Shown one piece after another: positions 19,569-62,781 of a stretch of 64,000 nt of DNA (positions are counted from its first letter, which is position 1; each line of letters begins with the position of its first letter). Under the pieces are notes generated by a model that was not told the origin of the DNA, ran no database searches, and worked only from the letters and a program-made list of their open reading frames with translations. Source of the stretch: a virus; the IMG/VR virus record IMGVR_UViG_3300030616_000016, positions 70,561-134,560 of that record. The stretch is one strand, 5' to 3'. The translations under genes and the position numbers were made by a program.

Positions 19569-20196
19569 TCAAGTAATCGTCTATTTTGTTTGCTTCTAGC
19601 TCAATGCCTGGTAGAAATGATGCTTGTTTTCTACTGGCAATAAAGTCCGCTAGCTGCACAATTTTTACTTCAATATCATCACATTTTACTGCGAGATCGG
19701 CTTCAATTTTTGGTTTAGAAAATCTATACATATGGAATCTGACACACCGTGCTAGCATCATTTCAGTTACTTGAAATGAATACGTGTCTCTAAAGCTCAT
19801 AATATATTCAAAACCTAGGATGCCATGCCGATAATCTGTTTTATCTTTCCACCTATGTCCATTCTTTCTTATGTCATGTACAATAGCTGCACCGACTACT
19901 GCATCTTTCATATCTCCTGGTATGTCAAAGTATGTGGCGAGCTGTCCTGCTATATACATAACTTTGATAGTATGTCTAAGCAAGCCATGCTCTCCATTAT
20001 CTTCTGGTGGATGATATTTACCACTAGATGATGCAGCGGCATAGAAGAATTGTTCATCTGCTTCTTTCAGTGCACTTGATACTAGATTTCTTATATTTTT
20101 GTCTTTTATATTGAGTACAATACGGTTAATGAAATTGTCAATGTTCATATATTCTTCTTTCTTATTTTGATGCCCACCTATCTCTATATTTAGCAA
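19537..20196 (-). CDS. HD-domain phosphohydrolase
   Basis: LLRHTIKV...AAIVHDIRK...D gives an H...HD...D arrangement. Confidence 0.65.
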   Translation of the reverse strand: MLNIEIGGHQNKKEEYMNIDNFINRIVLNIKDKNIRNLVSSALKEADEQFFYAAASSSGKYHPPEDNGEHGLLRHTIKVMYIAGQLATYFDIPGDMKDAVVGAAIVHDIRKNGHRWKDKTDYRHGILGFEYIMSFRDTYSFQVTEMMLARCVRFHMYRFSKPKIEADLAVKCDDIEVKIVQLADFIASRKQASFLPGIELEANKIDDYLNGDKYVCSEL

Positions 20197-20386
20197 AAGT
20201 GTTGTGCATTGCTTTATTCATTTCCTCTATTTTATGAGGCATGTCACACAATTCATGAACAATCTTATTGTTAAAAGATTTGCCACGGAATAGCTGTAGA
20301 GTTGCTCTGATAAATATGGTTATTATTACCCATATAATATATAGGTATAAGAACAATTTGTCAAGCAATAATAATTTATTTGTCAT
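20162..20386 (-). CDS. Small membrane protein
   Basis: One hydrophobic helix: LFLYLYIIWVIITIFI. Confidence 0.4.
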   Translation of the reverse strand: MTNKLLLLDKLFLYLYIIWVIITIFIRATLQLFRGKSFNNKIVHELCDMPHKIEEMNKAMHNTFAKYRDRWASK

Positions 20387-20536
20387 CTAGTTTATTCTCA
20401 AAAGAGAAAGAAAAGCTATTATCTTTGGCGCTTGCCATATAGAGTTCCCACTAAATATGAGACAAGCTGTAAATGATATACTCCTTAGTAGGTGTAGTTA
20501 TTTACTTAGATAATAGCTTTTCATAGTAATGACAGA

Positions 20537-20851
20537 CTATGTAGCACCAAGATCCCATGGTTCTTTTGGTGGTTCAGTCGCGTCTCCGTTAGTTACAGCT
20601 TGTAATGTTTGCTCCACATTGTGTTTAAATCTCATTGCAAACTGACTAGGCTTAAGGCTTGTAATACCGCAAACCTTAGTTAACGCCTCCTTATAAACAT
20701 TATAAATATTATCTCTTTCCTCAGAGCTAAGTATTTTGCCTTGTAATAGCGTCAGGCAGCTTACTATTTCAACCATACGTTTTAAATCTTCTTTGTCTAC
20801 ATAGTAATTACCTTCTAAGCTCTGCTTGTTCATAATACAGTTCCATAGCAA
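20537..20851 (-). CDS. Hypothetical protein
   Basis: Co-directional ORF downstream of a sigma-70-like promoter. Confidence 0.5.
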   Translation of the reverse strand: MLWNCIMNKQSLEGNYYVDKEDLKRMVEIVSCLTLLQGKILSSEERDNIYNVYKEALTKVCGITSLKPSQFAMRFKHNVEQTLQAVTNGDATEPPKEPWDLGAT

Positions 20852-20904
20852 CTGGTTTTGATTTATATCCCATACTCCTTTAAAGAGTGTAAGATAAAAC
20901 TTTT

Positions 20905-20932
20905 ATTATATCATAAATGTGTGTAATATCAA
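20905..20932 (-). promoter_or_regulatory. Sigma-70-like promoter TTGATA-N16-TATAAT
   Basis: The minus strand reads TTGATAttacacacatttatgaTATAAT, about 50 nt upstream of gene 20537-20851. Confidence 0.5.
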
Positions 20933-20948
20933 CCTTTATGTTTCAAAA

Positions 20949-21001
20949 AACGGGTACTTACTCTACTTCGATTAAAAAAAGAAACGGGTACTTACTCTAC
21001 T
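20949..21001. repeat. Two identical 19-bp direct repeats (operator-like)
   Basis: aacgggtacttactctact at 20949-20967 and 20983-21001. Each copy is flanked by A-runs. Both lie just upstream of the promoter above. Confidence 0.7.
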
Positions 21002-21036
21002 GATAAAAAAGAACTTATGCACACAAAAAACAAGAT

Positions 21037-21195
21037 TCACTTCTTTTCGTCACCACAAATAGTACATCTGTGACCTGAGGATGTTTTGTTGTGGACGCGC
21101 TGAAACTTTCCGTATCTCTTGTCCTGAAAGATAGCGCCGGCTTTATTCATCTTGCCGTTTGCAATATGACCTTCACAAGTACAAGTTTTTATCAT
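21037..21195 (-). CDS. Small zinc-ribbon protein (52 aa), not in ORF track
   Basis: Hand translation: MIKTCTCEGHIANGKMNKAGAIFQDKRYGKFQRVHNKTSSGHRCTICGDEKK. Confidence 0.45.
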   Translation of the reverse strand: MIKTCTCEGHIANGKMNKAGAIFQDKRYGKFQRVHNKTSSGHRCTICGDEKK

Positions 21196-21221
21196 GATGT
21201 GCTCCAAATTGGTAAAAGATA

Positions 21222-21273
21222 GAGACCATCTAAAGTAATATTCTATTCAAAGAGTATTAAAGTAGATGGTCTC
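21222..21273 (-). terminator. Hairpin terminator after gene 21459-21845
   Basis: gagaccatcta...tagatggtctc forms an 11-bp stem with an inner taata/tatta pairing. On the minus strand it is followed by TATCTTTT. Confidence 0.5.
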
Positions 21274-21458
21274 ATGATTTGATGCGATGGAAATTAATTC
21301 CAATCTCATCAATGAATGAAAGATAGCCCAGAGCGATTAACGCTATTTTCGTGCTATCAATTCATATATAATATTATCTGAAATTAATATTAGTGCATAG
21401 TCGCTTCTCCGTCAGAATTTAGATTTCTGGAATTGTTATTCTTGAATGTTATTTGAAA

Positions 21459-21845
21459 TTATCTGGTGTCAATTTTGCTACTCTCTCCTGTTTCTATGCA
21501 ATAATGGACTGTTGTTTCATGACCTGTCATTACTATCATATGATTTCCGCACATATTTATTACATTAGTACTTTCTAAATCATATACATTAAATACCTTT
21601 TGCAGTTCTTTGTCTTTGAATATGAAGACAAGATCCATATCGAACGCACTAAACTGTGTGTTAGTATCTGATACATTTATTATGTAGTCGAAATCTATCT
21701 TTTTATTGATGGATTCTTCAAGATATTCTTGATAATTTTCATCAATATCCTGAGGGTCTTCTACTCCATATACTTCTGATATTTCTTCTTCTGTCAAGAC
21801 TTCCTTGATTGTTTTGCCTTCGATTTCATCAATGTTTCTATACAT
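21459..21845 (-). CDS. Hypothetical acidic protein
   Basis: The likely start MYRNIDEIEG at 21845 follows AAAGGA. The longer track ORF (to 21872) takes its ATG from the IS right end. Confidence 0.5.
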   Translation of the reverse strand: MYRNIDEIEGKTIKEVLTEEEISEVYGVEDPQDIDENYQEYLEESINKKIDFDYIINVSDTNTQFSAFDMDLVFIFKDKELQKVFNVYDLESTNVINMCGNHMIVMTGHETTVHYCIETGESSKIDTR

Positions 21846-21865
21846 TGAATTTCCTTTCTGAGAGA

Positions 21866-23164
21866 GTGACATTACCCCACGCCTAAAGGCGGGGGCTTCC
21901 TAATTCATCGAAAATTGCGTTCCATACTGGCTACGTCTTACATCTTCTCCAAAGGCTTTAGGTTCCCCTTGCCCAGGGGTACAAAATGCAAAATTCAAAA
22001 TATTACTAGATGCAAGGGCATCTCTATCGTGTTTGGCACCACAAGTGCAAGTCCAATATCTGTCACTTAGCTTAAGATTATTATTTATAGCGCCGCACTG
22101 GTTACACATCTTGCTGGATGGTTCAAATCTTCCTATAGTCAAAACATGCTTTCCATACCAACCTGCCTTATACTCAAGAAAGGTACGAAAAGTATACCAT
22201 CCAACATCAGAGATAGCCTTGGCCAAACAATGATTCTTCACCATTCCAGAAACGTTTAAATCCTCAAGACACACTGCTTGGTTCTCGTCAATGAGCCTTT
22301 TGGACAATTTATGCAAAAAATCTTTACGTTGATTAGAAATCTTCTCATGTATCAACGCTACCTTCCTACGAGCCTTGTTTCTATTTGAAGAACCTTTCTT
22401 CTTCTTTGATAATTGTTTTTGCTTTCTTGCCAATCTTCTTTCAAGTTTCTTTAGGTATCTTGGATTATCTATTTTCTCGCCTGTTGATAGTGTTGCAAAA
22501 TGTTTTAATCCAACGTCAACACCTACACTATTATCTCGTTCAGGATTACATTTGATAGGTAATTCTTCTCCATTGTCAACCAAAATAGAAGCAAAGTATT
22601 TCCCAGAAGGAGCCATGAATATAGTTACAGTTTTAATATTGCCTTCAAATTGTCTATGGAATTTGCATTTGATGCCATCACGGAATTTCATTACATATAG
22701 CCTATTATTATCAAAATCCACATTACTTCCTTGTGGAAATTGACAAGATTGCTTTTTGAATTTCTTCTTAAATTGAGGATATCTTGCCTGTTTCTTAAAA
22801 AACCGCCGGAAAGCATTGTCAAGGTTTCTAAAGGCCATTTGCAAAGATTGACTATTAACTTCCTTCAGCCAACCATGCTCAGATTTCATATGTTTCAATT
22901 GCTTTATCAAATCAAAACAGGAAGGAGATTTCCCCGTTTTTTGATAAGACTCTGTTTTCTTTTGGAGTCCCAAATTGTATATGAACCGTACACAACCAAA
23001 ATGCTTCACAAGAAGCTCCTGTTGTTTTTTGTTGGGGTATATTTTGTATTTATATGCTCGTATCATTATATTTATAGTATAGCACAGGTTTCTGTAAATG
23101 TCAAGAGAAAAACGCATTCTTATATCCCCATGGCTAAAGCCAGGGGTCTTACGAATGCACCTTG
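21866..23164 (-). mobile_element. IS200/IS605-family element carrying tnpB only (IS1341-like), 1.3 kb
   Basis: The ends are defined by comparison with copies at 33637-33883 and 62734-62781. The left end (LE) starts CAAGGTGCATTCGTAAGACCCCTGGCTTTAGCCATGGGG immediately after TTAT. The right end (RE) finishes CCCCCGCCTTTAGGCGTGGGGTAATGTCAC. Both ends have subterminal imperfect hairpins. No tnpA is present. Confidence 0.8.
21900..23066 (-). CDS. tnpB: TnpB (OrfB) RNA-guided-nuclease-family protein
   Basis: MIRAYKYKIYPNKKQQELL, GVDVGLKHFATLSTGEKIDNP (RuvC-I Asp), VCLEDLNV (RuvC-II Glu), CNQCG...CTCG (zinc finger), HDRDALASSNI (RuvC-III Asp). Confidence 0.9.
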   Translation of the reverse strand: MIRAYKYKIYPNKKQQELLVKHFGCVRFIYNLGLQKKTESYQKTGKSPSCFDLIKQLKHMKSEHGWLKEVNSQSLQMAFRNLDNAFRRFFKKQARYPQFKKKFKKQSCQFPQGSNVDFDNNRLYVMKFRDGIKCKFHRQFEGNIKTVTIFMAPSGKYFASILVDNGEELPIKCNPERDNSVGVDVGLKHFATLSTGEKIDNPRYLKKLERRLARKQKQLSKKKKGSSNRNKARRKVALIHEKISNQRKDFLHKLSKRLIDENQAVCLEDLNVSGMVKNHCLAKAISDVGWYTFRTFLEYKAGWYGKHVLTIGRFEPSSKMCNQCGAINNNLKLSDRYWTCTCGAKHDRDALASSNILNFAFCTPGQGEPKAFGEDVRRSQYGTQFSMN

Positions 23165-23296
23165 ATAAAAGAGCAGGAGGAAGGTATCCTCTTCCCCCTG
23201 CCAGGTTTCATTATCAAAAGCTCCAGCTGCTTTCAATTATCAGTTGAACGCTGGAATTCAATGAAATGTTGCATTTATGTTGTCTACGGCGCTATA

Positions 23297-23411
23297 GCCA
23301 ATTTTTAGATCTAAGTACCTGCGACCTGCCATTAGTCCAAGGACACATAAGGAATAAAATGGAGTGTCCTGAGGGACTTGAACCCTCAACTCAGGCATAG
23401 TTAATATTGGC
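23297..23411 (-). ncRNA. Circularly permuted tRNA-like element (3' half, encoded CCA, 13-nt linker, 5' half)
   Basis: Minus strand: GCCAAT-ATTAACTA-TGCCTG-AGTT-GAGGG-TTCAAGT-CCCTC-AGGACAC-T-CCA-TTTTATTCCTTAT-GTGTCCT-TG-GACT-AATGGCA-GGTC-G-CAGGTA-CTTAGATCTAAAA-ATTGGC. All four cloverleaf stems pair, but only across the permuted order. Confidence 0.4.
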
Positions 23412-23489
23412 GTTCGAGAAGACAACGCAACAAATGCTGAGCTTTCAGGGAATAGTCTGAATTTAGCGTGCTTTCATATTATCACCAGC

Positions 23490-23553
23490 TTTCGCCGCGT
23501 ATGCCAGTTCCGCCATCTTCCCATATAGTGGGAAGAGCAGGGTTCGAACCTGC
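23490..23553 (-). ncRNA. Second tRNA-like module (T-arm, 3' acceptor, 7-nt loop, 5' acceptor, D-arm)
   Basis: Minus strand: GCAGG-TTCGAAC-CCTGC-TCTTCCC-ACTATAT-GGGAAGA-TG-GCGG-AACTGGCAT-ACGC. Canonical U8, A14, G18G19 and A21 are present. No convincing anticodon stem was found. Confidence 0.3.
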
Positions 23554-23608
23554 ACGGTGAAGGAAAGTACTTATTTCAGCTTAACCTTAAGCTTCAGCTT
23601 GCCCTGTA

Positions 23609-24346
23609 TTATCCGAAAATGAAGTTACAGATGTCCTTGCCGATTTCTTTGCGTTCAACAGACGTGTTGTTTGCTTCTTCTCGTGCAAACTTGACTGCTC
23701 TCATAAGAACAGCAATTTTGTCAAGCATTTCTTTCTTACGAGTTGCAGAAATACATGTACTGAGCTTTGTAGTAGTCCAGTAACCGATAATCTCATCGCT
23801 GACTACAAGCTGAGTCTGTGCAGGATGCTTTTCAGTAGCAGCATAAAGAACGATAGGTTTCTCAACCTTACGTGTTTTATGTGTCTGACGCGCGCCTGAT
23901 TTGAACATTCCGGAATCTTCATCACGAGCCCATGTTTCTGCTGGATCCAGTTCAGGAAGTTTCTCGACATATGTTTTAATATCGTTCAGCTGTTTTTCGA
24001 GGTACAGCAAGAATGTGGGAGGGGCGTCTTTTACAATTACTGTGTCGCCAACCTTAATATCTGCTTTTGCAATGGTATTGCCAAAGTCTTTAGTTGCAGT
24101 AACATCAAACAGATCTGCGAGAGATTCCGCTACTTCGTTAATTACATTGTTCAGATTTTCTTGTACCTTTACTGATTCTTCTGGAAAGTTCTCACCTTCT
24201 TCGTCTTTAGGCTCATATACTTTATGAAGGCCATTGAATATTTGTGGTGCATCTGACAAACGATGAGCCTGAGTAATGATAGAATTATGGCGGGATTTTT
24301 CGCCCTTCTCAACTGCAATAATCTGATTAAGTTTAACTTCAGACAT
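23609..24346 (-). CDS. Conserved-looking hypothetical protein
   Basis: 245-aa ORF, visibly more GC-rich than its neighbours. It begins MSEVKLNQIIAVEKGEKSR. No family name recalled with confidence. Confidence 0.6.
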   Translation of the reverse strand: MSEVKLNQIIAVEKGEKSRHNSIITQAHRLSDAPQIFNGLHKVYEPKDEEGENFPEESVKVQENLNNVINEVAESLADLFDVTATKDFGNTIAKADIKVGDTVIVKDAPPTFLLYLEKQLNDIKTYVEKLPELDPAETWARDEDSGMFKSGARQTHKTRKVEKPIVLYAATEKHPAQTQLVVSDEIIGYWTTTKLSTCISATRKKEMLDKIAVLMRAVKFAREEANNTSVERKEIGKDICNFIFG

Positions 24347-24371
24347 TTGTTACCTCCTTCTGTAAGATTTA

Positions 24372-25121
24372 TTATTCAATTATTTCTTTTATTTCTTTTA
24401 TGATACTTTCTTTTGATTTAATTTTTGGTTTTGACTCATGCAATATATTATTAGTACTTTCTTGTATCATATAATCTTCAACTTGGATAGATTTTAATGT
24501 GTCTTTATACAAGTCATCGATTGTTATATCTGAAATATCATTTACACTATCAGAATATGTTGATATCATGTTATTAAATTTTGATTTAAGCTCTACTTGT
24601 TTAGACTTTGCCCTCAGAGAAATGAGCTTAGAATCATATTCATTACATTTCTTTTCATATTCTTTTATCTTATTTTCCCAGCTAATCAGAATTTTTCTTA
24701 AAGAGCTTAGTGTTTCTTTTTTAAGCTTAACTTCTTCTTTCATTTTCTTTAGAACAAGTGACCTAGAATGAATCGTTTCTAGTTCTTTTAGGTTTCGCTC
24801 TACATTTGATTCTTTTAGATTTTTCTTTATGTTACTTGTAACTTCTTGTATATTTTGTTCAAGTCCATAAACTTCTTCTTCCAGAAACTTTATATCTATT
24901 TTTAACTCTATTGCCTGTGATTTACTTACTTTCAAATTACTTTTCAGGTCATCTATAACGACCTCGATTCTATCAATTTTTACATCTGTAGGAATTGATT
25001 TTTCTATCTTCTTAACAGTAGTTTTCTGTGCTGTTTTGACATAGCTTTTAACTCTGCTGTATCCAATAAATACGATTGCTAATATTGTTATTATGGCTAC
25101 GACAACAAGTTTTTTAATCAT
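24372..25121 (-). CDS. Single-pass membrane protein with long coiled coil
   Basis: N-terminal helix LVVVAIITILAIVFIGY followed by a Lys/Glu-rich heptad-like sequence. Confidence 0.55.
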   Translation of the reverse strand: MIKKLVVVAIITILAIVFIGYSRVKSYVKTAQKTTVKKIEKSIPTDVKIDRIEVVIDDLKSNLKVSKSQAIELKIDIKFLEEEVYGLEQNIQEVTSNIKKNLKESNVERNLKELETIHSRSLVLKKMKEEVKLKKETLSSLRKILISWENKIKEYEKKCNEYDSKLISLRAKSKQVELKSKFNNMISTYSDSVNDISDITIDDLYKDTLKSIQVEDYMIQESTNNILHESKPKIKSKESIIKEIKEIIE

Positions 25122-26298
25122 TCAATTTCTCCTCTGATTTTGTTGATTTTTGTAGATTATATTGCATTATGTTTTTATCAAATTCTCTAATCTGTGTCTT
25201 CATTTCTTCTGATTCTTTTATAAGTTTGCTATATTTATGTTTGATAATAGCTTTAGAATGTAATAAGCCAATATGTTCAATAAGTTTATTAAATTTGTAA
25301 GCGAATCTAGTAGCTTTTGCTGGAATTTCTGTCAATGCTTCTACTTCTTGATCAGTTAGAGTTGAAGTTTTTAATTTATCAACTCTTGATTTTAATTCAT
25401 TAAGTTTACTTTGTGGTAATTTCAACTTATTTAATTGGTATTTGAAATCATCTTTGAGGAGATCTGCGAACTTTCCTTCTTTTGCTTCAAGTATATTATC
25501 AAAGAATCCTGTACCTTTCTTAGGTTCTTCTTCTATATATTTATCAAATCTAGTTACGGGTTCTTCCGGAGCACTCGCAAGTTCTTTCAGATACTCTGAA
25601 GGCTTAGGTAATGTTTTAGGTTCTTCTGTTGTTATTTTCTGTTGTAATGATCTTATCCACTCAGCACGTCCATCAAACTTGATGCTGTTTAAAGAAATAT
25701 GGTTATAATAATATTCAATAAGACAATCTGTTACATTTTTTAATATTTGTTCTTTTGGCATTTGATATATACAAGTCTTAAGACATTTTTTACTAATACT
25801 TTCCAAAACATTTTCTTTAATGTTTGGATATTCTGCTTTAATGTATTCTTTTATTAATGGAAGTCTTCTTTCAATAAGTTCATTATTTCTAAGATTATTC
25901 ATCATTAATAATATTACGATTGTTAAGCAAGTTCCAAAAATATATGGATTTATTTTGGTCTCAACTTTTGCAGCATCTCCATATAAGCTATGCCATATTA
26001 CAATAAGTTTTCCTGCTTGGATTATTGAATATACAATTAATGGGATAAATAATATGTATCCTAATGCCTCATATGCACTCATATATGGAAGTGTATTTAT
26101 ATTCATTATTGGCATTGGCTCCTTGGTTTGTGGAACATGGACATTGCTAAGTATTGATATAAGAATAAGTACAAACGAGATTATTAGTGCACAAAATAAT
26201 GACTTACTGGTTTGTATGATTTCAGATAAAAGTATTATCAATGCAAGTAATGGTAATCCAATACAAATGATTATTATAATGTATATAAGCACTACCAT
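25114..26298 (-). CDS. Polytopic membrane protein with C-terminal coiled-coil domain
   Basis: At least four hydrophobic helices in the first 130 aa. Overlaps the downstream gene by 8 nt. Confidence 0.55.
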   Translation of the reverse strand: MVVLIYIIIIICIGLPLLALIILLSEIIQTSKSLFCALIISFVLILISILSNVHVPQTKEPMPIMNINTLPYMSAYEALGYILFIPLIVYSIIQAGKLIVIWHSLYGDAAKVETKINPYIFGTCLTIVILLMMNNLRNNELIERRLPLIKEYIKAEYPNIKENVLESISKKCLKTCIYQMPKEQILKNVTDCLIEYYYNHISLNSIKFDGRAEWIRSLQQKITTEEPKTLPKPSEYLKELASAPEEPVTRFDKYIEEEPKKGTGFFDNILEAKEGKFADLLKDDFKYQLNKLKLPQSKLNELKSRVDKLKTSTLTDQEVEALTEIPAKATRFAYKFNKLIEHIGLLHSKAIIKHKYSKLIKESEEMKTQIREFDKNIMQYNLQKSTKSEEKLND

Positions 26299-26300
26299 AA

Positions 26301-27305
26301 TTATCTCATTAAATATAGATTGCGTAGTTCATCTCTATCATAAAACACATTACGGATTTCTTGTCTAATATTATAGTCTTGAAATATTCTATCATAAAAA
26401 CTAGTAGTATCTCCACCAAGAAATTCTATTGCATCATTTATTGGTTGAGTTGTATTATGGTCTGGAGTAATTCCAATTCCTTCTTTCTCGACTCCATATA
26501 TATCATATATAATTCCTGCTGTGTAATTGAATCCATCGCCTCTATAAAACTTATATGCTTGTACGGCTCTAAAAGCACCAAATGTTTTAGAGCCAAATAT
26601 TGTAGCTTCTGAATAGTATTTCATTGCTGAAACAAATATTTCTGCGAATTGAAATGTACAAGCACTCGTAAGTATACACATATTATTTTTATGAAGCCAT
26701 GTATTTTCTGTTTGCACAGACATATCTGCAAAATCACTAAACGCAAATGCTGTATTATTAATTGCTGCAACTAATTCATTAGAATAAGTTTTGTGAGTAA
26801 ATCCAGCAAGCAGTTTTATGTATTCGCCTAATCCGCCATTATTACAATATCTAAGATCGAGAATTAAAGAATTGCATTCGAATTCATACATGTAATGGTT
26901 GACATTAAGCATAACAGTTTCTGCCATTCCAGCAGACATTTTATCTACAGATATATATAATATATCTGGTTCAATTTTATATATTTTTAATGTTCCTGAT
27001 GCTTCATTATCTGATATGGCTGCTTCCATTTCTTCGCTGTTTATATACCTTGTATATAAATCTGTTTCAGAACGGAGTCTATTTATATATGATTCTAAAG
27101 TATCTGAAGTTAAAGGTGGTTGAACGTTTCCATAAATATAGCCTTGTGATAATACCGAATATGCTTCTTGTAGATATTCTTCATCTACGTTTGTAATTTG
27201 ATTTTCTGTATTTGGATTGCTACTATTTCCTCCTCCTCCACAGCCATTACAAAATATAATTATGATACATAATATGAACAAATTAATTTTGATATTTTTT
27301 ATCAA
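26301..27305 (-). CDS. Lipoprotein, S41 (C-terminal processing peptidase)-like domain
   Basis: Signal and lipobox LFILCIIIIFCNGC|GGGG. LILDLRYCNNGGLGEY resembles the S41 DLR-x-N-x-GG motif. GSKTFGAF aligns with the G-x-x-T-x-G-K region but lacks the Lys. TTG start with an AAGAGG RBS. Confidence 0.45.
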   Translation of the reverse strand: MIKNIKINLFILCIIIIFCNGCGGGGNSSNPNTENQITNVDEEYLQEAYSVLSQGYIYGNVQPPLTSDTLESYINRLRSETDLYTRYINSEEMEAAISDNEASGTLKIYKIEPDILYISVDKMSAGMAETVMLNVNHYMYEFECNSLILDLRYCNNGGLGEYIKLLAGFTHKTYSNELVAAINNTAFAFSDFADMSVQTENTWLHKNNMCILTSACTFQFAEIFVSAMKYYSEATIFGSKTFGAFRAVQAYKFYRGDGFNYTAGIIYDIYGVEKEGIGITPDHNTTQPINDAIEFLGGDTTSFYDRIFQDYNIRQEIRNVFYDRDELRNLYLMR

Positions 27306-27428
27306 GACTACCTCTTTCTGTTTAATAATGGTTGTAATGAATAGGAAAGTCTCTGGTAAGGCAAAAGGATGAAGAGCACGAGGGCTCTTTGGGGGAAGTC
27401 GAAAATTCTCACCAGAGACGGGATATAT

Positions 27429-28220
27429 TTAGAAATCAGTTGATTTTGCGGTTCTCATACCGCGAGCCATCATTTCTTTCACAAAGTCTTCTCCAAGACT
27501 TTCGAAGGTCGCTACATTTGAAGTTGTATCTTCAATTAATACAAACTTCTTAATATTCTCATCGCCGAAGTTATCAGCAATGTCTCTTACTGTATTTGCA
27601 ACACAGTGTGACAGAGCTTCTCCAGTTATGAGAATATCGTCTGCTTCCAGTAGGCTATCAAGAAGATTGCCATTAAGTCTTGTAGTAGGGTCAGACGGGT
27701 CTTCTACATCGGCTTTTACTGCTGAGTAGTGTTCTGTAAAAGGATTAGACCCTTTAGTAACATAGTCAATCATAGCAAACTGATTTTCCCACTCAGTTAT
27801 TGCTTCGAACACATTAGCATCGATTGAATGTCCTTGCGAACCAATAAGACAATGTGGCCGCCAGATGCAGAGAACATATCTGCCATTGTCTTCAAGTGTT
27901 TTTGTATAATCTGAAGCTTTCTGTTGAAGAGCTGGGTTATAGGAATGCCAGACACCATTTTTTACATCATCATGGGATATTACTGTAAATGGGTTTGGAT
28001 GTTTACCATCTTTATCAACCCAGAATATAGGATGTGCAATATGAATGGTTCTGTGAGAATCCATTGTAATATGGATATCATCTAATCCGTCTTTCATTCT
28101 GTTGACCATTTCTGCAAGACGTTTCATATCCTCATCTGCTCTAGGAACAACTAGGGCTCCTTTTGGATTACAGAAGTCATATTGAGGATCAATAGCAAGA
28201 AGATGAGTTTTCTTGTTCAT
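27429..28220 (-). CDS. pncA: Nicotinamidase / isochorismatase-family cysteine hydrolase
   Basis: LLAIDPQYDFCNPKGALVV (catalytic Asp region), MDSHRTIHIAHP (metal-binding D-x-H...H), ITGEALSHCVANTV (catalytic Cys). Confidence 0.7.
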   Translation of the reverse strand: MNKKTHLLAIDPQYDFCNPKGALVVPRADEDMKRLAEMVNRMKDGLDDIHITMDSHRTIHIAHPIFWVDKDGKHPNPFTVISHDDVKNGVWHSYNPALQQKASDYTKTLEDNGRYVLCIWRPHCLIGSQGHSIDANVFEAITEWENQFAMIDYVTKGSNPFTEHYSAVKADVEDPSDPTTRLNGNLLDSLLEADDILITGEALSHCVANTVRDIADNFGDENIKKFVLIEDTTSNVATFESLGEDFVKEMMARGMRTAKSTDF

Positions 28221-28239
28221 AATTGCTGACCTTTCTTAG

Positions 28240-29895
28240 TTATTTTTTAATACTGATAGAGAACATTTCTTTATCCTCTGTAAAGTATACACTGGTACCA
28301 TCAGTGTATAGTGGCATTGATGAGTCTATCGGCGGATTAGTAATAATGCGTTTTTGATTATCTTTAGAGATCTCAATCTTTTGATCGCTAAATACATCAA
28401 TGCAAACTCCATTATTAAGAACAATGAAATTGATATTATCAACATCGCGCTCTTCTTTGTCTAGCAGAATACCTTTATTTTCTTTGCTGCATAGTTTGAA
28501 TCGGAATCTATAATATTTACCAGATTCTTCTGCTATGCATACTAGAATTCCTCTGCTATGTTTTGCATTGATTATTCTAAGTCCATGGAGTTCCTCAATA
28601 GGACCTAGAAAACTACCAGAATCTTCTAATGGCGCATATGCCCAACATTTGTCTAGGAAGTTGCTAATTACTACTCCACTAAACATTTGATTCATAGTAC
28701 CAAGATTTTGGGATGGATTCGAGCATGCCGCGCTCTTATTCCCCATATTTTTTGCATATACCTCATATACTGAGGCGCCGTTTCTGCAAAATATACTACC
28801 ATTGTATATCATGGCTTTGTCTGCGGCAAATTTACCTGGTATATCCGTTTCTATTTCTACACAGCCATTATCAATTATGCCTAACACAGGGTCAGGAGAT
28901 AGATTGCATAGAAATGCCTTTTTATTGGATATATCCTTAAATATGGATTTACCACAGTATATTGCCTTATCCGTAAATGTATAGAAAATACCATTTAGGA
29001 ATTGTATTGATTTAATCGGCTCATTGTACTTATACATTGATTTAATGTCAAAATTTGCTGTGCTTCTTATAGTCTTTTGAACCATAGCTATATTAATTGT
29101 AGCGTCAGGTTTAGGTGGAGCGCTGCGTTTATTCTCAATGAATATTGACTTAAACCACTCCATATGAGCTTTAGGAATAACTGAGAAGTCTTGACATACG
29201 GATGGAATGGTAACCTTACTATCAAATACGGATATACCATCATCCATTCGCTTAGTAAATTCTCTTGGTTTATAGTCTGGGTGTTTACCCTTATAAGGAT
29301 GGATACCAACATAAAGCTGAAATGCTATTACTGCAAACGAGAACCAATCGCTTAGTTCTGTGAACTTTTTGGCTAAGCGGTCTCTTATTGAATCCATAAT
29401 AGCATTAGCTGGAAATGACTTTGTCTGATAACTGTCAACGTCAATAAAGTAAGGTACTTTATGACCTTTGTCTATCAGAAAGTTCATTTCATTCATATCT
29501 ACTATCAGGCATTGTTTAGAATGAATGTGCTCGACCGTGTCTTGTATATTGCGCACAATTTCTAATACTTGATTAGGAGATATATTATTATCTTTTCTGT
29601 ACTGCTTAGTAAAGAGCTTGCATAGAGCACTTGTCTCTTTAATATACTTCATTGTATATCCGATGACATTGCTTGTCTTTTTATCGCAAACAATATCTTC
29701 CGGTTTGATAACATTGCCGGCTGTTATATAGCCAAGCTCTTCAATCTTTCTTAATGGTATCATATGCTTGATATCATTATAAATCTTGAAGGCAATATTG
29801 TCTTTTTTATATACAGAACCTTGACCACCAGATGCAATAAAATCATTGTCTTTCAGGTCAAATGAAGCCTTTGTTCTATTTACAATGACTCTCAT
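28240..29895 (-). CDS. Ser/Thr protein kinase with large C-terminal domain
   Basis: IASGGQGSVYKKDNIAFKIY (Gly-rich loop and Lys). HSKQCLIVDMNEMNFLI (catalytic-loop D..N). FIDVDSY (DFG-equivalent). Confidence 0.7.
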   Translation of the reverse strand: MRVIVNRTKASFDLKDNDFIASGGQGSVYKKDNIAFKIYNDIKHMIPLRKIEELGYITAGNVIKPEDIVCDKKTSNVIGYTMKYIKETSALCKLFTKQYRKDNNISPNQVLEIVRNIQDTVEHIHSKQCLIVDMNEMNFLIDKGHKVPYFIDVDSYQTKSFPANAIMDSIRDRLAKKFTELSDWFSFAVIAFQLYVGIHPYKGKHPDYKPREFTKRMDDGISVFDSKVTIPSVCQDFSVIPKAHMEWFKSIFIENKRSAPPKPDATINIAMVQKTIRSTANFDIKSMYKYNEPIKSIQFLNGIFYTFTDKAIYCGKSIFKDISNKKAFLCNLSPDPVLGIIDNGCVEIETDIPGKFAADKAMIYNGSIFCRNGASVYEVYAKNMGNKSAACSNPSQNLGTMNQMFSGVVISNFLDKCWAYAPLEDSGSFLGPIEELHGLRIINAKHSRGILVCIAEESGKYYRFRFKLCSKENKGILLDKEERDVDNINFIVLNNGVCIDVFSDQKIEISKDNQKRIITNPPIDSSMPLYTDGTSVYFTEDKEMFSISIKK

Positions 29896-30731
29896 GGCTT
29901 ATCCTTAAGCAGTGTAGCACATGCTATATCATCAAAGTGCTTATTGTTTATTTTGGAATCCATGATGCGTATTTTCTTCATTCTTCTTTTTACAAACTCT
30001 CCTTTGAAGGTTTTATATACAGTCATTCGTATAGCGTTATCAAGCACACTTGTATTTTCAAAAGAGCTTATACCATCAGTGAACAGGCTTATGCTCATTC
30101 CTTCTGCCATTGGCGCACTAGACATTATGTATGGCTCGAACATGGGGATTGTAGAGCTCTTAAAGTCTTCGTCTGGGTTATATGACAATACTGTTTTTTC
30201 TGGATTGCCCAATATATCCATAGTATTCATATAGTCTTTAATCTTTTCATCTTCCATGCGATATGCAAGATAGTATGGCATGTTAGATGTATATGATATT
30301 TCTTCAATACGAATCCATGGATTTGGGTCATTCGCTCTATCAAAACCATCATTAAAGACAACTACTCCATCTCCCCATACTGCTATGCCAAATCCCTCAT
30401 TATTGGCTATTACTACCATAAGCGTGGCATAGAATGTCTGGATGTCAAGACAAAGAGCTATTGCTACTTTTGATAGCGCTCCCAACACTTTATTTTCAAA
30501 TGAACAAAGAGCAGTTGATAATGTCTTGTGTCCAAACATAACTATTGAGCTTCTTAATGCTTGTTCTGCAGCAATTCCAAGTATTTTTGCACCAAGGTCT
30601 GTGTTTTGTGCAGAAGAACAGCCGTCACAGACGATACCATAGGAATAACCATAGATATCGCCTGTGATAGCATAATCTTCACACATATCATGACTGGCAC
30701 CAATTTCTACAAAACTATCTTTCTGTATCAT
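29892..30731 (-). CDS. PP2C-family protein phosphatase
   Basis: IGASHDMCEDYA, VCDGCSSAQNTDLGAKI, LFTDGISSF. This is the PP2C_2-type pattern. Overlaps the kinase start by 4 nt. Confidence 0.65.
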   Translation of the reverse strand: MIQKDSFVEIGASHDMCEDYAITGDIYGYSYGIVCDGCSSAQNTDLGAKILGIAAEQALRSSIVMFGHKTLSTALCSFENKVLGALSKVAIALCLDIQTFYATLMVVIANNEGFGIAVWGDGVVVFNDGFDRANDPNPWIRIEEISYTSNMPYYLAYRMEDEKIKDYMNTMDILGNPEKTVLSYNPDEDFKSSTIPMFEPYIMSSAPMAEGMSISLFTDGISSFENTSVLDNAIRMTVYKTFKGEFVKRRMKKIRIMDSKINNKHFDDIACATLLKDKP

Positions 30732-30747
30732 TGGTACTCCCAGTCAT

Positions 30748-31497
30748 TTAGAAGTTAAGAATTGAAGATGCCGAGCCGGATCCAAGAGACTGTGATTGTG
30801 AGGATATGCTTTGACTCACAAATTCAGCCAGCTTTGCAAGCTTGGATGGAGTAGCTTCTCCGACAGATACGTATTTATCAAGGTTTGCATTATCCTTGAA
30901 TGTAGTCAAGAAATTCTTGACTGCAGGATCTTTATCAATCCCGATAAGAACCGTAATAATTGATTCGAGGCTTTCTTCTCTTGTGATATCATCTACTAAC
31001 GTAGCAACTTGTACTGGCGCATTATTTGATTGATTATCAGCGCCATCTGTAATGATAAATACAATTGCATTTGTTAGGAGATCTACTTTATCATACATCT
31101 GCTTGCTATACTGATGTGTTGCTTCGATGCCTTCATATGTTGCATCAAATAATGCAGTTGTACCGCCTGTACGGATGATATTAGAGTATTCATCATCACT
31201 AATATCACTTAGGAGGCGGAAACCATGCATTTCGTTCAGATTAGCATTGAATGTAGTGAAGCGAACCATTAAGTTTTCTGCACGTGGAGACTTTTTGCAT
31301 GATTCGATTACAGTTTTCAGCATATCCTCAATATCATCTTTGTATGGAGACACTGAAGAAGATACGTCGATAATAATTGAAACGAGTGTATATTCAGAAG
31401 CACCTAGTTCATCAAGCTTTACAGCACTGAATCTGAAGTTTGATGCAGTCTGCATACTGGTTATGTTTGCAAGATCTTTATCCATTAATCTTGGCAT
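30748..31497 (-). CDS. von Willebrand factor A (vWA) domain protein, TerY-like
   Basis: MIDAS residues: IIIDVSSSVS (DxSxS), GGTTALFDA (Thr), FIITDGADN (Asp). Confidence 0.75.
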   Translation of the reverse strand: MPRLMDKDLANITSMQTASNFRFSAVKLDELGASEYTLVSIIIDVSSSVSPYKDDIEDMLKTVIESCKKSPRAENLMVRFTTFNANLNEMHGFRLLSDISDDEYSNIIRTGGTTALFDATYEGIEATHQYSKQMYDKVDLLTNAIVFIITDGADNQSNNAPVQVATLVDDITREESLESIITVLIGIDKDPAVKNFLTTFKDNANLDKYVSVGEATPSKLAKLAEFVSQSISSQSQSLGSGSASSILNF

Positions 31498-31499
31498 GG

Positions 31500-32486
31500 T
31501 TATTTCCTTTCTTTGTTAAGCCTGTTTCCTTCTCCTAAATGCATAAGGGGAAGCGGTTTAGGGCTATCACCATTTAGGAAGTATACCTTGGTAGCCGGGT
31601 CTTTTGTAATTGTACCTAGTGCTTTAAGTGCTTCAAGCTGGATATATGCAGGATTATTTGCAATAGCATCGTTAACTTTCTGAATTTCATATGCTTTTGC
31701 GTCTGCAAGGATCTTCTGTTTTTCTGCTGAAAGCATTGCGGCGTCTTTATCTGCCTGAGCAGTTTTAACTTTCTTCTGCTGTTCAGTCTCAAACCTGCGC
31801 AACTCTGCTTTCTCACGTTCAGCTTCCTGCTCGCGTTTCTTCTTACTCTCAACACCTTGCTGGATTGTGTTGGGAAGTTGAATATTTCTAATGAGAACAG
31901 CTTCAACATCAAGGCCCTTTGGTGCAACGTATTCTTTAATTGAAGTAAGAAGATTTGCCTGCATCTTTTGCTGAATTTCTTCCCTAAAGAATGACTCTGC
32001 AGTTTTCACACTTTTACCTTGTTCTCGCAATAAGCTTCGGAACTTGGGTAACATGTGTACTTCCATAAGGTCTTTAGGATTACCGGTTTCTTGCAGAATG
32101 TCTGGAGCCATAGACTTGATAATTCGATACTGACAGCTTACATCGAATGTCGTAACAAGCTGGTCCATACTTGGGATGGGAACCTGGCTCATTGTAATAC
32201 TTTTCTGACGACAATCGAATTCTTCCCAATCATACAAAGGATTGGTAAGGTGAATGCCTGCTTCATAGGGCTGATCAACGACTTTACCAAAGAATGTAGC
32301 TACTCCAATATGTCCTGGAGGTATTGAGATAACACATGAAGCGATGAGAGTAATAGCGCCGACGGCTCCTACCAGTAGACCGCCAAGAATATAAGGACGC
32401 CTTTTTTCTTCTGATTTAGCCATAAGACCATATACAAACACCAACAAACCGATTAATGCAATTATAATACCAAGAGCAAGTATCAT
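31500..32486 (-). CDS. SPFH/Band-7 (prohibitin/HflK/C-like) membrane protein
   Basis: Two N-terminal TM helices, then IPPGHIGVATFFGKVVDQPYEAGIHLTNPLYDW and a C-terminal Lys/Glu/Ala coiled coil. Confidence 0.75.
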   Translation of the reverse strand: MILALGIIIALIGLLVFVYGLMAKSEEKRRPYILGGLLVGAVGAITLIASCVISIPPGHIGVATFFGKVVDQPYEAGIHLTNPLYDWEEFDCRQKSITMSQVPIPSMDQLVTTFDVSCQYRIIKSMAPDILQETGNPKDLMEVHMLPKFRSLLREQGKSVKTAESFFREEIQQKMQANLLTSIKEYVAPKGLDVEAVLIRNIQLPNTIQQGVESKKKREQEAEREKAELRRFETEQQKKVKTAQADKDAAMLSAEKQKILADAKAYEIQKVNDAIANNPAYIQLEALKALGTITKDPATKVYFLNGDSPKPLPLMHLGEGNRLNKERK

Positions 32487-32508
32487 ATTACTACCTTTCT
32501 AAATCAAA

Positions 32509-32646
32509 TTACTTTTTAGTATATATACCAATGAAACCATTCCACTGGTAATTTTTGTACTTAATACCACAAATGAATCCAAACAATAGTGTAGATAGAA
32601 CAACAAAGCCTATCATTATTAAAGTAGCTTTTGCTAATTGTTTCAT
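32509..32646 (-). CDS. Small membrane protein (45 aa), not in ORF track
   Basis: MKQLAKATLIMIGFVVLSTLLFGFICGIKYKNYQWNGFIGIYTKK, directly upstream of the SPFH gene. Confidence 0.35.
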   Translation of the reverse strand: MKQLAKATLIMIGFVVLSTLLFGFICGIKYKNYQWNGFIGIYTKK

Positions 32647-32921
32647 TCTACACCTCTATAATAAGTAAGTTTCCGTATAGCAGCCAACTCCTGGGGAAAT
32701 CGACATTAGGAAAGCATGTCGACTAACTATATGTCTCCATATAGAACAGGTGAAACGTTGGTTTCTCGATTAACTTTCACCTTTCAGCTGTCAACTTTCA
32801 AATCCTGAACTTTGAATTTTAAAGTTTGAGCTTTGAAGGGCTAAGTTTAGTTCGTATTATGAGTACGATACGTAATTCCTATTTTCTTTTCTCCCTCTTC
32901 GCTATGGAAAACTTATTGTAT

Positions 32922-33440
32922 TTATTCTATTGTAATAGTAGTCGTTGCATTGATCATTGACAGCTTACCGTCAATTTCATCTTCAATTTCGCCAAGCTCT
33001 TCCAGTTTCTTATGAACACTTGGTGCATCGACACTGATGACAAGTCCCGCACTGTCTTTGTCGAAGCTGTTGTTCATCGATTCTTCTTGCTTTACATGGC
33101 TATAAACTTGCATATATGAAGTTTTAATTGAAGGGAGAGTTTCTCTTCTCCAAATTAGCCATTCTGCAATTGTCATTTCATAATTGCCAATTTTAACAAC
33201 AGTTGCTTCATTTGCAAGCTGAATTGCCATTCTGATGTTCTTTTTGCGTTCGGCAAGATCAGTGATTGTTTGCATTGTATCTTGCACGAATTTTGCTGAT
33301 CCGCCTTCATTTTCGTATGGATCCTTAAATTTCTCATTCCTTATAGAAACATCAATAACTGCTTTAGTTTTCTTGTTAATCTTATTATTGATGAGTTTAA
33401 TTTCTGCGAGCCCTTCCGTAATAGTCATGTTTGATTCCAT
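32922..33440 (-). CDS. DIP1984-family-like protein
   Basis: The GAGGAAAGG RBS precedes the MESN initiator at 33440; the family-like architecture begins at MTITEGLAEIKLINNKINKK. LAERKKNIRMAIQLANEATVV...TIAEWLIWRRETLP...EEIDGKLSMINATTTI matches the family architecture as recalled. Confidence 0.55.
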   Translation of the reverse strand: MESNMTITEGLAEIKLINNKINKKTKAVIDVSIRNEKFKDPYENEGGSAKFVQDTMQTITDLAERKKNIRMAIQLANEATVVKIGNYEMTIAEWLIWRRETLPSIKTSYMQVYSHVKQEESMNNSFDKDSAGLVISVDAPSVHKKLEELGEIEDEIDGKLSMINATTTITIE

Positions 33441-33636
33441 GCTGAACCTTTCCTCTCTATTAATTTGTTTTAACCAAAAATTCACCAAACAACACAACTT
33501 GCTTATTAAATGATAATTAGATAGTTACTTAGATAATCAAATTATTTGATAGATCGGTAACATATCTCAATTATGCAATTTTTTGGTAATATATGTATAT
33601 CACTGTGCCTTAAAATGAGTACCTATTATCGTTTAT

Positions 33637-33883
33637 CAAGGTGCATTCGTAAGACCCCTGGCTTTAGCCATGGGGATATAAGAATGCGTTTTTCTCTTGA
33701 CATTTACAGAAATCTGTGCTATACTTTTGCTAATGATCGAAAACCAAGATCATTGGCAAAGAATTTAGATACCGCAGGGCATGCGGAAATTTACGCCTTT
33801 GGAGAAGATGTAAGACTTGTCTGCTTGAAAGCAGTCTTCAGTGAATTAGGAAGCCCCCGCCTTTAGGCGTGGGGTAATGTCAC
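33637..33883 (+). mobile_element. Non-autonomous miniature derivative (MITE/PATE-like) of the tnpB element, 247 bp
   Basis: The first ~97 nt match the IS LE with one mismatch. The last ~41 nt and an internal 22-nt block (gcctttggagaagatgtaagac) match the IS RE and tnpB 3' end. Preceded by TTAT. Track ORF 33573-33866 is an artefact of this element. Confidence 0.8.
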
Positions 33884-33887
33884 CTGA

Positions 33888-35558
33888 TTAGTTTATAAGG
33901 CAAAACAGATACTTCTGAATTCTGTCACTGCCTGTTGCATATTCGTCTATCAGGCGATATAAGAGCTTGTCCCAGCCTTTAGATAGCATCAACTGCATTA
34001 CAGTGATGTATATCCTTGTTCCAGACCTCTTACCACTATTTGCATATATTCCATCATCAGATAGCTTACGACTGCATGCATGAGTATTTGTCTGGTGGCT
34101 GAACTTATCTAATACTATCCAGAACACTTTCCCAGACCATGCCTCAACTGTCTGTCCGTTATAAGTATGCTTTTGTGGCTTGCATTCTTTTATAAGAGCA
34201 GATGGTATATTCCCATCTTCTCCTTCTAGAAAGTGAGGAACGGGCGCCGGCCCTGATTCCTCTGCAATATTATTAAGCATAGCTTCTACTATCTGACCTG
34301 GATTCCTACGCTTTAGAGTTGCAAGAGCGTTGGTTACCACTTCTGCTGGTTTGCCATCTATCTTAGGCATTTGCTCGTCTGGTATAATATTTACTATACC
34401 TTTATTACCGTGACGATTTGTAATTTTGTCGCCACTTCTGAGAATATGAAATCTCTCGTATTCGACAATAAGTTTTGTACAAACTGTGTTTGCTACTTTT
34501 GTTCTTATCTCACTGATATTAGACAGTTTAGCTTCACGCTTGACATGACATTTAAGCGTGATTGTTTCTTCTCCATCAGAATAAGAACCAATTATCTGAT
34601 TTGGTCTTACAATGTCTCCGGCTTTGGCTTCCATCTTTAGGCTTTGTTTGCACCATCCTGGTACTACGAATGTCTGTTTCTCAGGAATGACACATGTCAT
34701 TTTTCTAGCTGCTGACTTACTCATAACAATCTGTTCTTTGTATACACCAGGCATGATTGCATGAACTGTAAGTAAGTGCTTGCCATTAAGATTGTTATCA
34801 TAATCTTCTGGAAACACCATAGGTTTATCTGGACTAACTAGCTTGCTGGAAGCCTTGAAATTAGATGCAGTGGTTCTGCGGCGATTATATTCTGGTACAA
34901 TAAGATTCTTATTGAGTATATCGCAATAAACCCGACCTCTTTTGGTGAAGCATCCAATATCGTTTATTTTGCATTCTTCAGCCATGTACATTGTGCGACC
35001 ACAATTCCCCGATGACTGACTTATACTTGTCCAATCAAGAATGCCTTCTGTATTGAATGGCATAAATTCATCCGTTCGTTCTTGAAATAGCTCTAATGAT
35101 ATTTTGGGTCCATAGTGAGTAGCTATTCCCTTTACGACATGAGATAATCTTGAAGTTTTAAGTAAATTATCGAGCTTCATTTGAGCTGTGGTAGAATCTT
35201 CTTGATGTCCGAACATAAAGAAGTCTGACAGTTGTGTAGCATATGCTTGCTTAATGAATTTAAGAAGAAGCTCGTATGGTGTTGATAAATATGTGTGATT
35301 AATATTCATACATCTGTTATTAAAGATTGGCATTGGATTAAGTGTATAGCATAATTGCCGGCTTATTCCATTTACAGAAAACATACCCTTGTTATCAATC
35401 TTAGGTATATTTAGTTTTACGACTGTTTGCATGCTCTGGGATGCCTCTTTAACAAGCATTTTTGTATGAAATAGGTCATCATATTCTTCTATATGACAGT
35501 CAACAGGCAAACAATTACATATAGGAAACAATCTTGCAAGATGAGACTTATTCATCAT
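33888..35558 (-). CDS. Multisubunit RNA polymerase beta-like subunit, C-terminal fragment
   Basis: RSGDKITNRHGNKGIVNIIPDEQMPKIDGKPAEVVTNALATLKRRNPGQIVEAML is collinear with the RpoB GDK..RHGNKG...DMP...NP...R.N.GQ region. Confidence 0.75.
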   Translation of the reverse strand: MMNKSHLARLFPICNCLPVDCHIEEYDDLFHTKMLVKEASQSMQTVVKLNIPKIDNKGMFSVNGISRQLCYTLNPMPIFNNRCMNINHTYLSTPYELLLKFIKQAYATQLSDFFMFGHQEDSTTAQMKLDNLLKTSRLSHVVKGIATHYGPKISLELFQERTDEFMPFNTEGILDWTSISQSSGNCGRTMYMAEECKINDIGCFTKRGRVYCDILNKNLIVPEYNRRRTTASNFKASSKLVSPDKPMVFPEDYDNNLNGKHLLTVHAIMPGVYKEQIVMSKSAARKMTCVIPEKQTFVVPGWCKQSLKMEAKAGDIVRPNQIIGSYSDGEETITLKCHVKREAKLSNISEIRTKVANTVCTKLIVEYERFHILRSGDKITNRHGNKGIVNIIPDEQMPKIDGKPAEVVTNALATLKRRNPGQIVEAMLNNIAEESGPAPVPHFLEGEDGNIPSALIKECKPQKHTYNGQTVEAWSGKVFWIVLDKFSHQTNTHACSRKLSDDGIYANSGKRSGTRIYITVMQLMLSKGWDKLLYRLIDEYATGSDRIQKYLFCLIN

Positions 35559-62512: not shown

Positions 62513-62733
62513 TCTACGTCCTCCTCAATTATTTTTTGAAGACTTTTGAAATCTGACTTTAAGTCAAAAATTGCTTTTATCATCCATCCTATCGATGTTA
62601 GTATAAATGTGATAAAGCAATAGAAAACTATATCCATTTGGTATTCTCCTGTATGTGTATCCGGCCATTTATTAGGCCAAAATGGCCTGATTGATAATTA
62701 AGTTTGTTCGATAGGCGCCGCTTAACCGCTTAT

Positions 62734-62781
62734 CAAGGTGCATTCGTAAGACCCCTGGCTTTAGGCGTGGGGTAATGTCAC
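62734..62781 (+). mobile_element. 48-bp minimal relic of the tnpB element (LE start fused to RE end)
   Basis: TTAT|CAAGGTGCATTCGTAAGACCCCTGGCTTTAGGCGTGGGGTAATGTCAC. The junction falls in the CTTTAG loop shared by the LE and RE hairpins. Confidence 0.75.

Follow-up and report, generated by a model that had tools for sequence, protein, structure and literature searches.

Transposition of insertion sequences (ISs) of the IS200/IS605 family proceeds through a single strand on which the left end is followed by the right end (PMC10055086). The described systems closest to the locus considered here are ISDra2 of Deinococcus radiodurans (PDB 8EXA, 8H1J), whose guide-RNA scaffold runs from the 3′ end of tnpB into the right end; the IS1341-group ISGst elements of Geobacillus stearothermophilus, in which tnpB lies alone between conserved ends, TnpA presumably acts in trans, and TnpB is thought to cut the vacated site and so retain the element (PMC10055086); and the palindrome-associated transposable elements (PATEs), which have hairpin-bearing left and right ends without an open reading frame (ORF) and often encode omega RNAs needing TnpB in trans (PMC10055086). 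Phage TnpB genes and omega-RNA-bearing PATEs have both been described already, and a TnpB element accompanied by gene-less miniatures is usual in this family. Here we analyse 64,000 nt of viral DNA (positions 70,561 to 134,560 of IMG/VR record IMGVR_UViG_3300030616_000016; hereafter the window) in which a full tnpB-only element and a gene-less miniature lie in opposite orientations around 10,472 bp, an arrangement that the first-pass annotation interpreted as bracketing a mobile accessory segment. It is likely, judging from sequence, that the window has instead received three independent insertions of a single IS lineage, that the bracketing pair is not a cargo unit, and that the miniature is a trans-guided derivative.

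The ends of the elements are defined by comparison of the copies with one another. A repeat search and alignments confirm the positions and inverted orientation originally assigned to the full element and the miniature (Table 1), and show pairs of inverted-repeat arms at 23076–23172 and 33629–33725 (97 nt, 98% complementary), 21866–21922 and 33827–33883 (57 nt, 91%), and 21935–21981 and 33770–33816 (47 nt, 83%). The longest arm consists of 89 nt of left end containing one mismatch plus 8 nt of T-rich flank, such that the shared left end is shorter than the 97 nt first given, with its single mismatch unchanged; the shared right end, put at about 41 nt, has 42 identical terminal nucleotides but continues for ~74 nt more at ~73% identity (116 nt at 82.8% overall). 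A third copy of 48 nt, absent from the earlier description, is a fusion, made within the hairpin loop, of the initial 30 nt of the left end and the terminal 18 nt of the right end.

These copies have several features in common. First, TTAT precedes all three, the right-end flanks differ (TCTC, CTGA and TTCT), and the left ends of the two bracketing copies face inward, as the first-pass annotation had it; in two relatives of the element (L105 and L106) the preceding motif is TTAC. Second, there are neither terminal inverted repeats nor target duplications (the ends CAAGGTGC... and ...AATGTCAC are not inverted repeats of each other), and the subterminal hairpins at both ends are imperfect, that of the right end being identical in the full element and the miniature. 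Third, end motifs of 29 and 39 nt occur three times each in the window and not at all in 100 shuffles. Finally, in the miniature the tnpB body is replaced by a private hairpin that is unrelated to the full element, as had been observed before. The defining sequence features of IS200/IS605 elements and of PATEs are all present, and the pair, tested for membership among composite transposons, does not belong to them.

The gene of the full element encodes a 388-aa TnpB identical to the product called on the source contig (ENA ERZ27252234 k141_1275754, 231,593 bp), and the same protein is encoded by a near-identical genome (JGI contig, 231,647 bp). Its assignment to a tnpB-only IS605-family element is borne out by Pfam matches to OrfB_IS605 (PF01385, 6.7e-34), TNB (PF07282, 2.2e-19) and HTH (PF12323, 4e-19), and by an end-to-end alignment with ISDra2 TnpB (residues 3–378, E 2.8e-67) in which the RuvC D/E/D residues are kept. 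As in ISDra2, the target motif beside the left end presumably doubles as the transposon-associated motif (TAM). The differences from ISDra2 are that our element has no tnpA, that its target is TTAT rather than TTGAT, that it resides in a phage-like genome, and that its TnpB has a C-x-C zinc knuckle. We considered whether this knuckle is a decisive defect and rejected the idea, since a Clostridium homolog (L030) has it too and tnpB evolves under purifying selection: the ratio of nonsynonymous to synonymous substitution rates (dN/dS) is 0.05–0.12 against L106 (87% identity) and L105 (79%), which argues that tnpB is maintained by selection. Metagenomic relatives at 73–87% identity are of equal or similar length.

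No Y1 TnpA was found in the 64-kb window by tblastn with two approximate queries (best E 1.2), and the same queries match a TnpA next to tnpB in the clade relatives L081, L041, L077, L056 and L037 and in L028. On this sequence evidence the element is a non-autonomous, tnpB-only (IS1341-type) member of the IS200/IS605 family. It resembles ISGst in having tnpB alone between conserved ends with TnpA presumed to act in trans, and differs in being of another sequence lineage and in having no partner TnpA in the 64 kb searched. A predicted promoter with near-consensus hexamers lies in the left end, and is kept in the miniature and in both L105 and L106. The right end of the full element had also been credited with donating an in-frame ATG to the adjacent ORF; an ATG is indeed present at 21872, but on the source contig the gene is called from an ATG further downstream, at 21845, which has the ribosome-binding site AAAGGAAA, and the 'donated ATG' comes from extending the ORF mechanically.

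Relatives of the element are found in other phages. The nearest full relative (L105) is located on a 38-kb IMG/VR viral contig, the only one matched by the 22-nt scaffold core in an IMG/VR scan. A phage contig related at 66% (L002) has a left-end-like stretch at 405–460 (minus strand; 79% over 57 nt, after TTTAT) and a right-end-like remnant, CCCCCGCCTTTAGGCGTTGGGGAGGATGTCAC, at 8011–8040 (minus strand); these are at sites other than those in the window, suggesting that the IS lineage has visited this phage group repeatedly. Together with the viral location of L105, the remnants suggest that the element family circulates among phages. The right end gave no match in the IMG/VR scan, nor did a 22-nt right-end motif in a metagenome scan, and the ends were not found by DNA search in 80 tnpB loci from genomes, being too diverged. 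The closest homologs of TnpB in genomes are from Methanosarcina (52–55% identity). We did not adopt an archaeal host on this account, since these identities are low, the closest relatives (79–87%) are in metagenome or phage contigs, and the window contains a bacterial-type RecA/UvsX and sigma-70-like signals.

The evidence that the miniature specifies a guide RNA comes from a comparison with foreign tnpB loci. The 3′ regions of the 80 tnpB loci share a clear layout and were extracted by structure and motif, and a covariance model of 111 positions (R1) was built from the 3′ ends of 18 of these, with no sequence from the window; the consensus has 27 pairs, 21 of which show compensatory changes. 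When run on the entire window with filters off, R1 matches exactly two sites, both at full length (the next best has an E-value of 0.49): one at the tnpB 3′ end, one in the corresponding part of the miniature. The score of the miniature equals those of the tnpB-linked scaffolds of L105 (26.2) and L106 (29.2), both of which are outside the model. An independent model thus upholds the earlier proposal that the miniature keeps the guide scaffold, to which the left-end promoter can be added.

Several further observations bear on whether these RNAs are functional. In the full copy, synonymous divergence (dS) falls in the last 38 tnpB codons to 0.09, versus 0.70 upstream, when compared with L106, and to 0.34 versus 2.7 when compared with L105, a collapse that is a signature of an overlapping functional RNA. 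Between the miniature and the resident copy, stem A contains two fully compensated pairs (C-G to G-C, and U-A to A-U) and P2 shows G-U/G-C switches, and in a four-way scaffold alignment 95% of cells are paired in register versus 33–60% with the partners slid. The miniature is like the L105 lineage in its interior (AAATTyACGCC, GACTTG) and like the resident element at its ends; it is thus a mosaic and not a fresh deletion of the resident copy. Single-sequence RNA folds are uninformative (z −1.6 and −2.4).

Gene-less derivatives readily arise by deletion, and the 48-nt copy has neither promoter nor scaffold (R1 has no match there), so the miniature and micro copies could be inert deletion relics without an RNA function, leaving only the full element of importance. 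For the 247-bp copy this is unlikely: its promoter is intact, its scaffold is complete and reaches the scores of genuine tnpB-linked copies, the changes that set it apart from the resident copy keep the pairing, and an L105-like interior between resident-like ends is not what a simple recent deletion would leave. The sequence evidence indicates that the RNA structure of the miniature cassette is under selection. We view the miniature as a PATE-type cassette of promoter, putative omega-RNA scaffold and right end, whose RNA the single TnpB could serve in trans, consistent with the prior suggestion of a second guide for that protein. It is like described PATEs in its ends and lack of a gene, and differs from them in keeping the promoter and full scaffold of the element and in being a mosaic of two sub-lineages; the 48-bp copy differs in being reduced to the extreme of a single hybrid hairpin.

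The scaffolds are not recognised as members of any Rfam family. At gathering score no Rfam family matches the window or 20 homolog loci, a point in which the scaffold differs from that of ISDra2, and scans at E-value thresholds give only sub-threshold matches. These include, in the miniature alone, RAGATH-18 (RF03064; 21.2 bits, E 0.17, versus a gathering threshold of 44.9) and the Helicobacter pylori HPnc0580 sRNA (20.4 bits, versus a gathering score of 37); neither is matched by the 3′ end of the full copy (21700–22300) in the E-value-threshold scan. RAGATH-18 is the source of the guide RNAs of IS607 TnpBs (PMC11061315). The miniature shares with these guide RNAs (reRNAs) and HPnc0580 a CCU..GGAG ... 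GAUGAA..AGGAA motif layout, but as it scores far below the gathering thresholds this is resemblance and not membership.

We propose that a 231.6-kb jumbo-phage-like contig has been colonised three times, independently, by one non-autonomous IS200/IS605 lineage that would insert 3′ of TTAT. As no copy encodes TnpA, movement would require TnpA in trans, with the host or another part of the genome as its source. TnpB would load the omega RNA from the 3′ end of its own gene and very probably that of the miniature too, and the guide of each RNA would be the ~16–20 nt directly past the right end, by analogy with the TnpBs of ISDra2 and ISGst. The presumed guide of the full element has no other TTAT-adjacent match in the window; that of the miniature is complementary to the adjacent RNA-polymerase beta fragment gene at its 3′ end. 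TnpB would then cut vacant sites flanked by TTAT, and recombinational repair would restore the element (homing or retention), a process that the UvsX/RecA-like recombinase encoded at 1983–3107 could support. The bracketing copies would be simple intergenic insertions, one after the terminator of an RNA locus and one 4 nt past a stop codon, both at the edges of a region that is hypervariable in this phage lineage, presumably for unrelated reasons.

The miniature lies antisense to the RNA-polymerase beta fragment gene, 4 nt past its stop codon; the sole ORF that overlaps the miniature (33573–33866, 97 aa) begins outside the element and has no family match. The micro copy is at the 3′ end of a short putative minus-strand ORF (62782–62846, read by eye), where it would change the predicted C-terminus from ...DLEISG to ...DLEVTLPHA. 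The full element abuts, at its left end, a terminator ending ...CTCTTTTAT, and the homologous terminator in L004/L005 (...CCCCTTTTTTAT, i.e. ...TTTTTAT) provides an unoccupied TTAT.

The intervening DNA can be compared with that of a small number of relatives. The RNA-polymerase beta fragment next to the bracket has only four homologs among 5.8 billion proteins, with no match in the IMG/VR scan and only remote matches to the protein in a phage collection (INPHARED), in whose 50,697 records megablast with 20000–36000 also finds no match. In L002 a single unrelated gene separates the polymerase genes from the homologs of window genes located at or below 20.8 kb; the entire interval from 33.9 to 20.85 kb is lacking, including ~1 kb past the full element with the genes for 128-aa and 52-aa products. 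In relatives at 53% (L004/L005) and 51% (L008) the polymerase is followed by 6–11 genes unrelated to those of the window, and then by a DUF7873 gene. The DUF7873 gene in the window (23609–24346) is 56% identical to these copies versus 50–52% for RNA polymerase; the two values are in line and mark it as an ortholog inherited vertically. The other genes of the interval differ in every relative, and R1 finds no scaffold in L002, L004/L005 or L008.

The DUF7873 gene has on its downstream side a locus for a conserved structured non-coding RNA, probably the 'tRNA-like locus' of the first-pass annotation. It is not a tRNA: ARAGORN finds none in the window, and neither ARAGORN nor Rfam recognises this RNA. 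In an alignment of the window with L004:13402–13890 and L008:16774–17260 it has 71% column identity, above that of the flanking proteins, and 106 predicted pairs in the consensus, 42 with compensatory changes, in only three sequences. The locus contains two T-arm-like hairpins (GCAGGTTCGAAcCCTGC and GAGGGTTCAAGTCCCTC) and the conserved terminator mentioned above, and has the look of a large structured RNA, not described before, that is linked to DUF7873.

A four-gene module within the bracket has a different distribution. Sixteen metagenome loci (L089–L104), from a scan with the kinase of the segment, share this module and nothing else of it, with the 263-aa gene in a rotated position; they never contain the SPFH, S41, PspA-like or DUF7873 genes, and R1 has no match in any of them. 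Two of these loci (L089 and L093) encode a TnpB at 37% identity ~4 kb from the module. PADLOC and PHROGs scans of the bracketed genes show no known defence system and only weak kinase-domain matches. The segment is 35.0% G+C, versus 35.6–36.7% for the flanks. Separately, a small hydrophobic ORF (~35 aa, MKQLAKATLIMIGFVVL..., at 32540–32645 on the minus strand) is directly upstream of the SPFH/Band-7 gene and resembles the small membrane proteins that partner SPFH proteins.

These comparisons speak against the original suggestion that the full element and its miniature jointly mobilise 10.5 kb of cargo, as a composite or element-assisted transposon would. The pair does resemble a composite transposon in that two related IS-derived copies surround accessory genes, and the copies lie at or close to the borders of a stretch that varies among relatives, the miniature being within 4 nt of the last conserved gene. 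However, the copies are inverted with their left ends inward and there is no left-end and right-end pair on one strand around 23165–33636, so that joint single-strand mobilisation by the mechanism described (PMC10055086) is barred. Moreover, part of the 'cargo' is ancestral, the DUF7873 gene and RNA locus being vertically inherited and free of elements in L004/L005 and L008; the variable interval continues past the full element for ~1 kb; and the segment is a mosaic with a composition like that of its flanks. The cargo explanation is already largely refuted and we attach almost no probability to it. On these sequence comparisons the bracket is an ancestral gene and RNA locus together with mosaic accessory genes, and the region around them turns over also in relatives that lack these elements. 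The elements may have a role in turnover of the island.

The 89-nt, 99%-identical inverted left ends could also be substrates for recombination that inverts the 10.5-kb block, as in a phase-variation-like switch, and turns its genes round with respect to phage transcription. In favour are the length and near-perfect match of the repeat and the UvsX/RecA-like recombinase encoded in the window, but 89 nt is short, all genes of the block are co-directional with the flanks in the assembly and only this orientation is seen, and ten genes would be turned antisense to transcription, which is likely to be deleterious. We therefore regard such a switch as improbable, if somewhat less so than the movement of a cargo.

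Some observations count against our proposal of three independent insertions and a trans-guided miniature. First, no empty site was found in the same strain. Second, the left boundary of the variable interval coincides with the miniature within a few bases. Third, both scaffolds in the window have a U-U mismatch at one pair of helix P1. Fourth, the second zinc knuckle of TnpB is C-x-C and not C-x-x-C. Finally, the promoter was recognised solely by its match to the consensus, and the search for TnpA covered only 64 kb of the 231 kb.

Table 1. Positions of the IS-derived elements, their components and associated loci in the window.
Feature	Position	Strand	Details
Full tnpB-only IS200/IS605 element (IS1341-type, non-autonomous)	21866..23164	-	1,299 bp; boundaries by alignment with two shorter copies
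tnpB	21900..23066	-	388 aa; start is ATG 23066, not the mechanical ATG 23117 (405-aa ORF)
Left-end promoter, predicted	23076..23104	-	TTGACA-17-TATACT, extended TG; 11/12 consensus positions matched
Left-end subterminal imperfect hairpin	23126..23146	-	CCCCTGGC-TTTA-GCCATGGGG; DNA fold -9.4 kcal/mol, z -3.1
Right-end subterminal hairpin	21875..21894	-	CCCCGCC-TTTA-GGCGTGGGG, then TAATGTCAC; DNA fold -8.2 kcal/mol, z -2.6
TTAT (target, presumed TAM) beside left end of full element	23165..23168	-	within T-tract of intrinsic terminator 23172-23202
Omega (reRNA) scaffold of full element, predicted	21866..21989	-	R1 34.3 bits, E 2.4e-8; overlaps last ~30 tnpB codons and right end
Presumed 20-nt guide of full element	21846..21865	-	TCTCTCAGAAAGGAAATTCA
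Gene-less PATE-type miniature	33637..33883	+	247 bp; from repeat search and alignments
TTAT beside left end of miniature	33633..33636	+	read from sequence
Retained left-end promoter of miniature, predicted	33697..33725	+	TTGACA-17-TATACT; consensus match
Private hairpin of miniature	33726..33760	+	13 bp, in place of tnpB body; DNA fold -9.4 kcal/mol, z -4.9
Complete omega-RNA scaffold of miniature, predicted	33762..33883	+	R1 26.7 bits, E 4.6e-6, all 111 positions of the model
Presumed guide of miniature	33884..33903	+	CTGATTAGTTTATAAGGCAA
Presumed target of miniature's guide			TTAT+CTGATTAGTTTATAAG
Micro copy	62734..62781	+	48 nt; preceded by TTAT 62730-62733
Predicted vacant-site junctions of the three insertions			TTAT/TCTCTCAGAAAGG, TTAT/CTGATTAGTTTAT, TTAT/TTCTAAATCTAG
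Conserved structured non-coding RNA locus, not transposon	23172..23608	-	~440 nt, downstream of DUF7873
Four-gene module	27429-31497	-	249-aa, PP2C phosphatase, 551-aa Ser/Thr-kinase-like, 263-aa; 30-50% identity, 16 metagenome contigs

The wider context is that of a large phage. The window contains split RNA-polymerase beta-like genes (508 and 556 aa; 33888–37074, minus strand), nearly all genes of the 231.6-kb contig are on one strand, and most large ORFs have no PHROG match. These features, together with the size of the contig and the small number of polymerase homologs, point to a deep-branching, barely sampled jumbo-phage lineage. A phage related at 53% (L007) is present in the same sample. 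There is a second mobile element in the window, unrelated to the TnpB element, in the form of an IS110-type transposase ORF (336 aa; 43010–44020, minus strand) with matches to Pfam Transposase_20 (7.7e-5) and PHROG 4285 'transposase' (5e-32). An ORF for a reverse transcriptase (382 aa; 878–2026, minus strand; RVT_1 7.6e-20) adjoins the RecA/UvsX-like gene.

A more elaborate role can be envisaged, in which the transposon and miniature form a selfish two-guide homing drive for the island, for which their geometry would be suited. As the elements would be transcribed outward, their guides would match conserved DNA outside the hypervariable island, one at the 3′ end of the RNA-polymerase gene, one in the leader of the 128-aa gene. 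In a co-infection with a relative lacking the insertions, one TnpB with two omega RNAs could cut both borders, and UvsX-like gap repair could then copy the whole 13-kb interval, elements and accessory genes included, into the rival genome. We give this very little credence, and favour independent insertions with a miniature guided in trans.

The main value of these observations is negative, in that a conspicuous bracket does not define a mobile cargo unit. The compact 388-aa TnpB, with its short T-rich TTAT motif and ~120-nt scaffold, is a candidate editor. The locus provides what would be a clean natural example of a modular TnpB system, with one nuclease gene and a separate, promoter-equipped guide-RNA cassette, in a poorly sampled jumbo-phage lineage. 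Such an arrangement would be one step on the proposed route from transposon TnpB to multi-guide Cas12, for which phages are a suspected arena.

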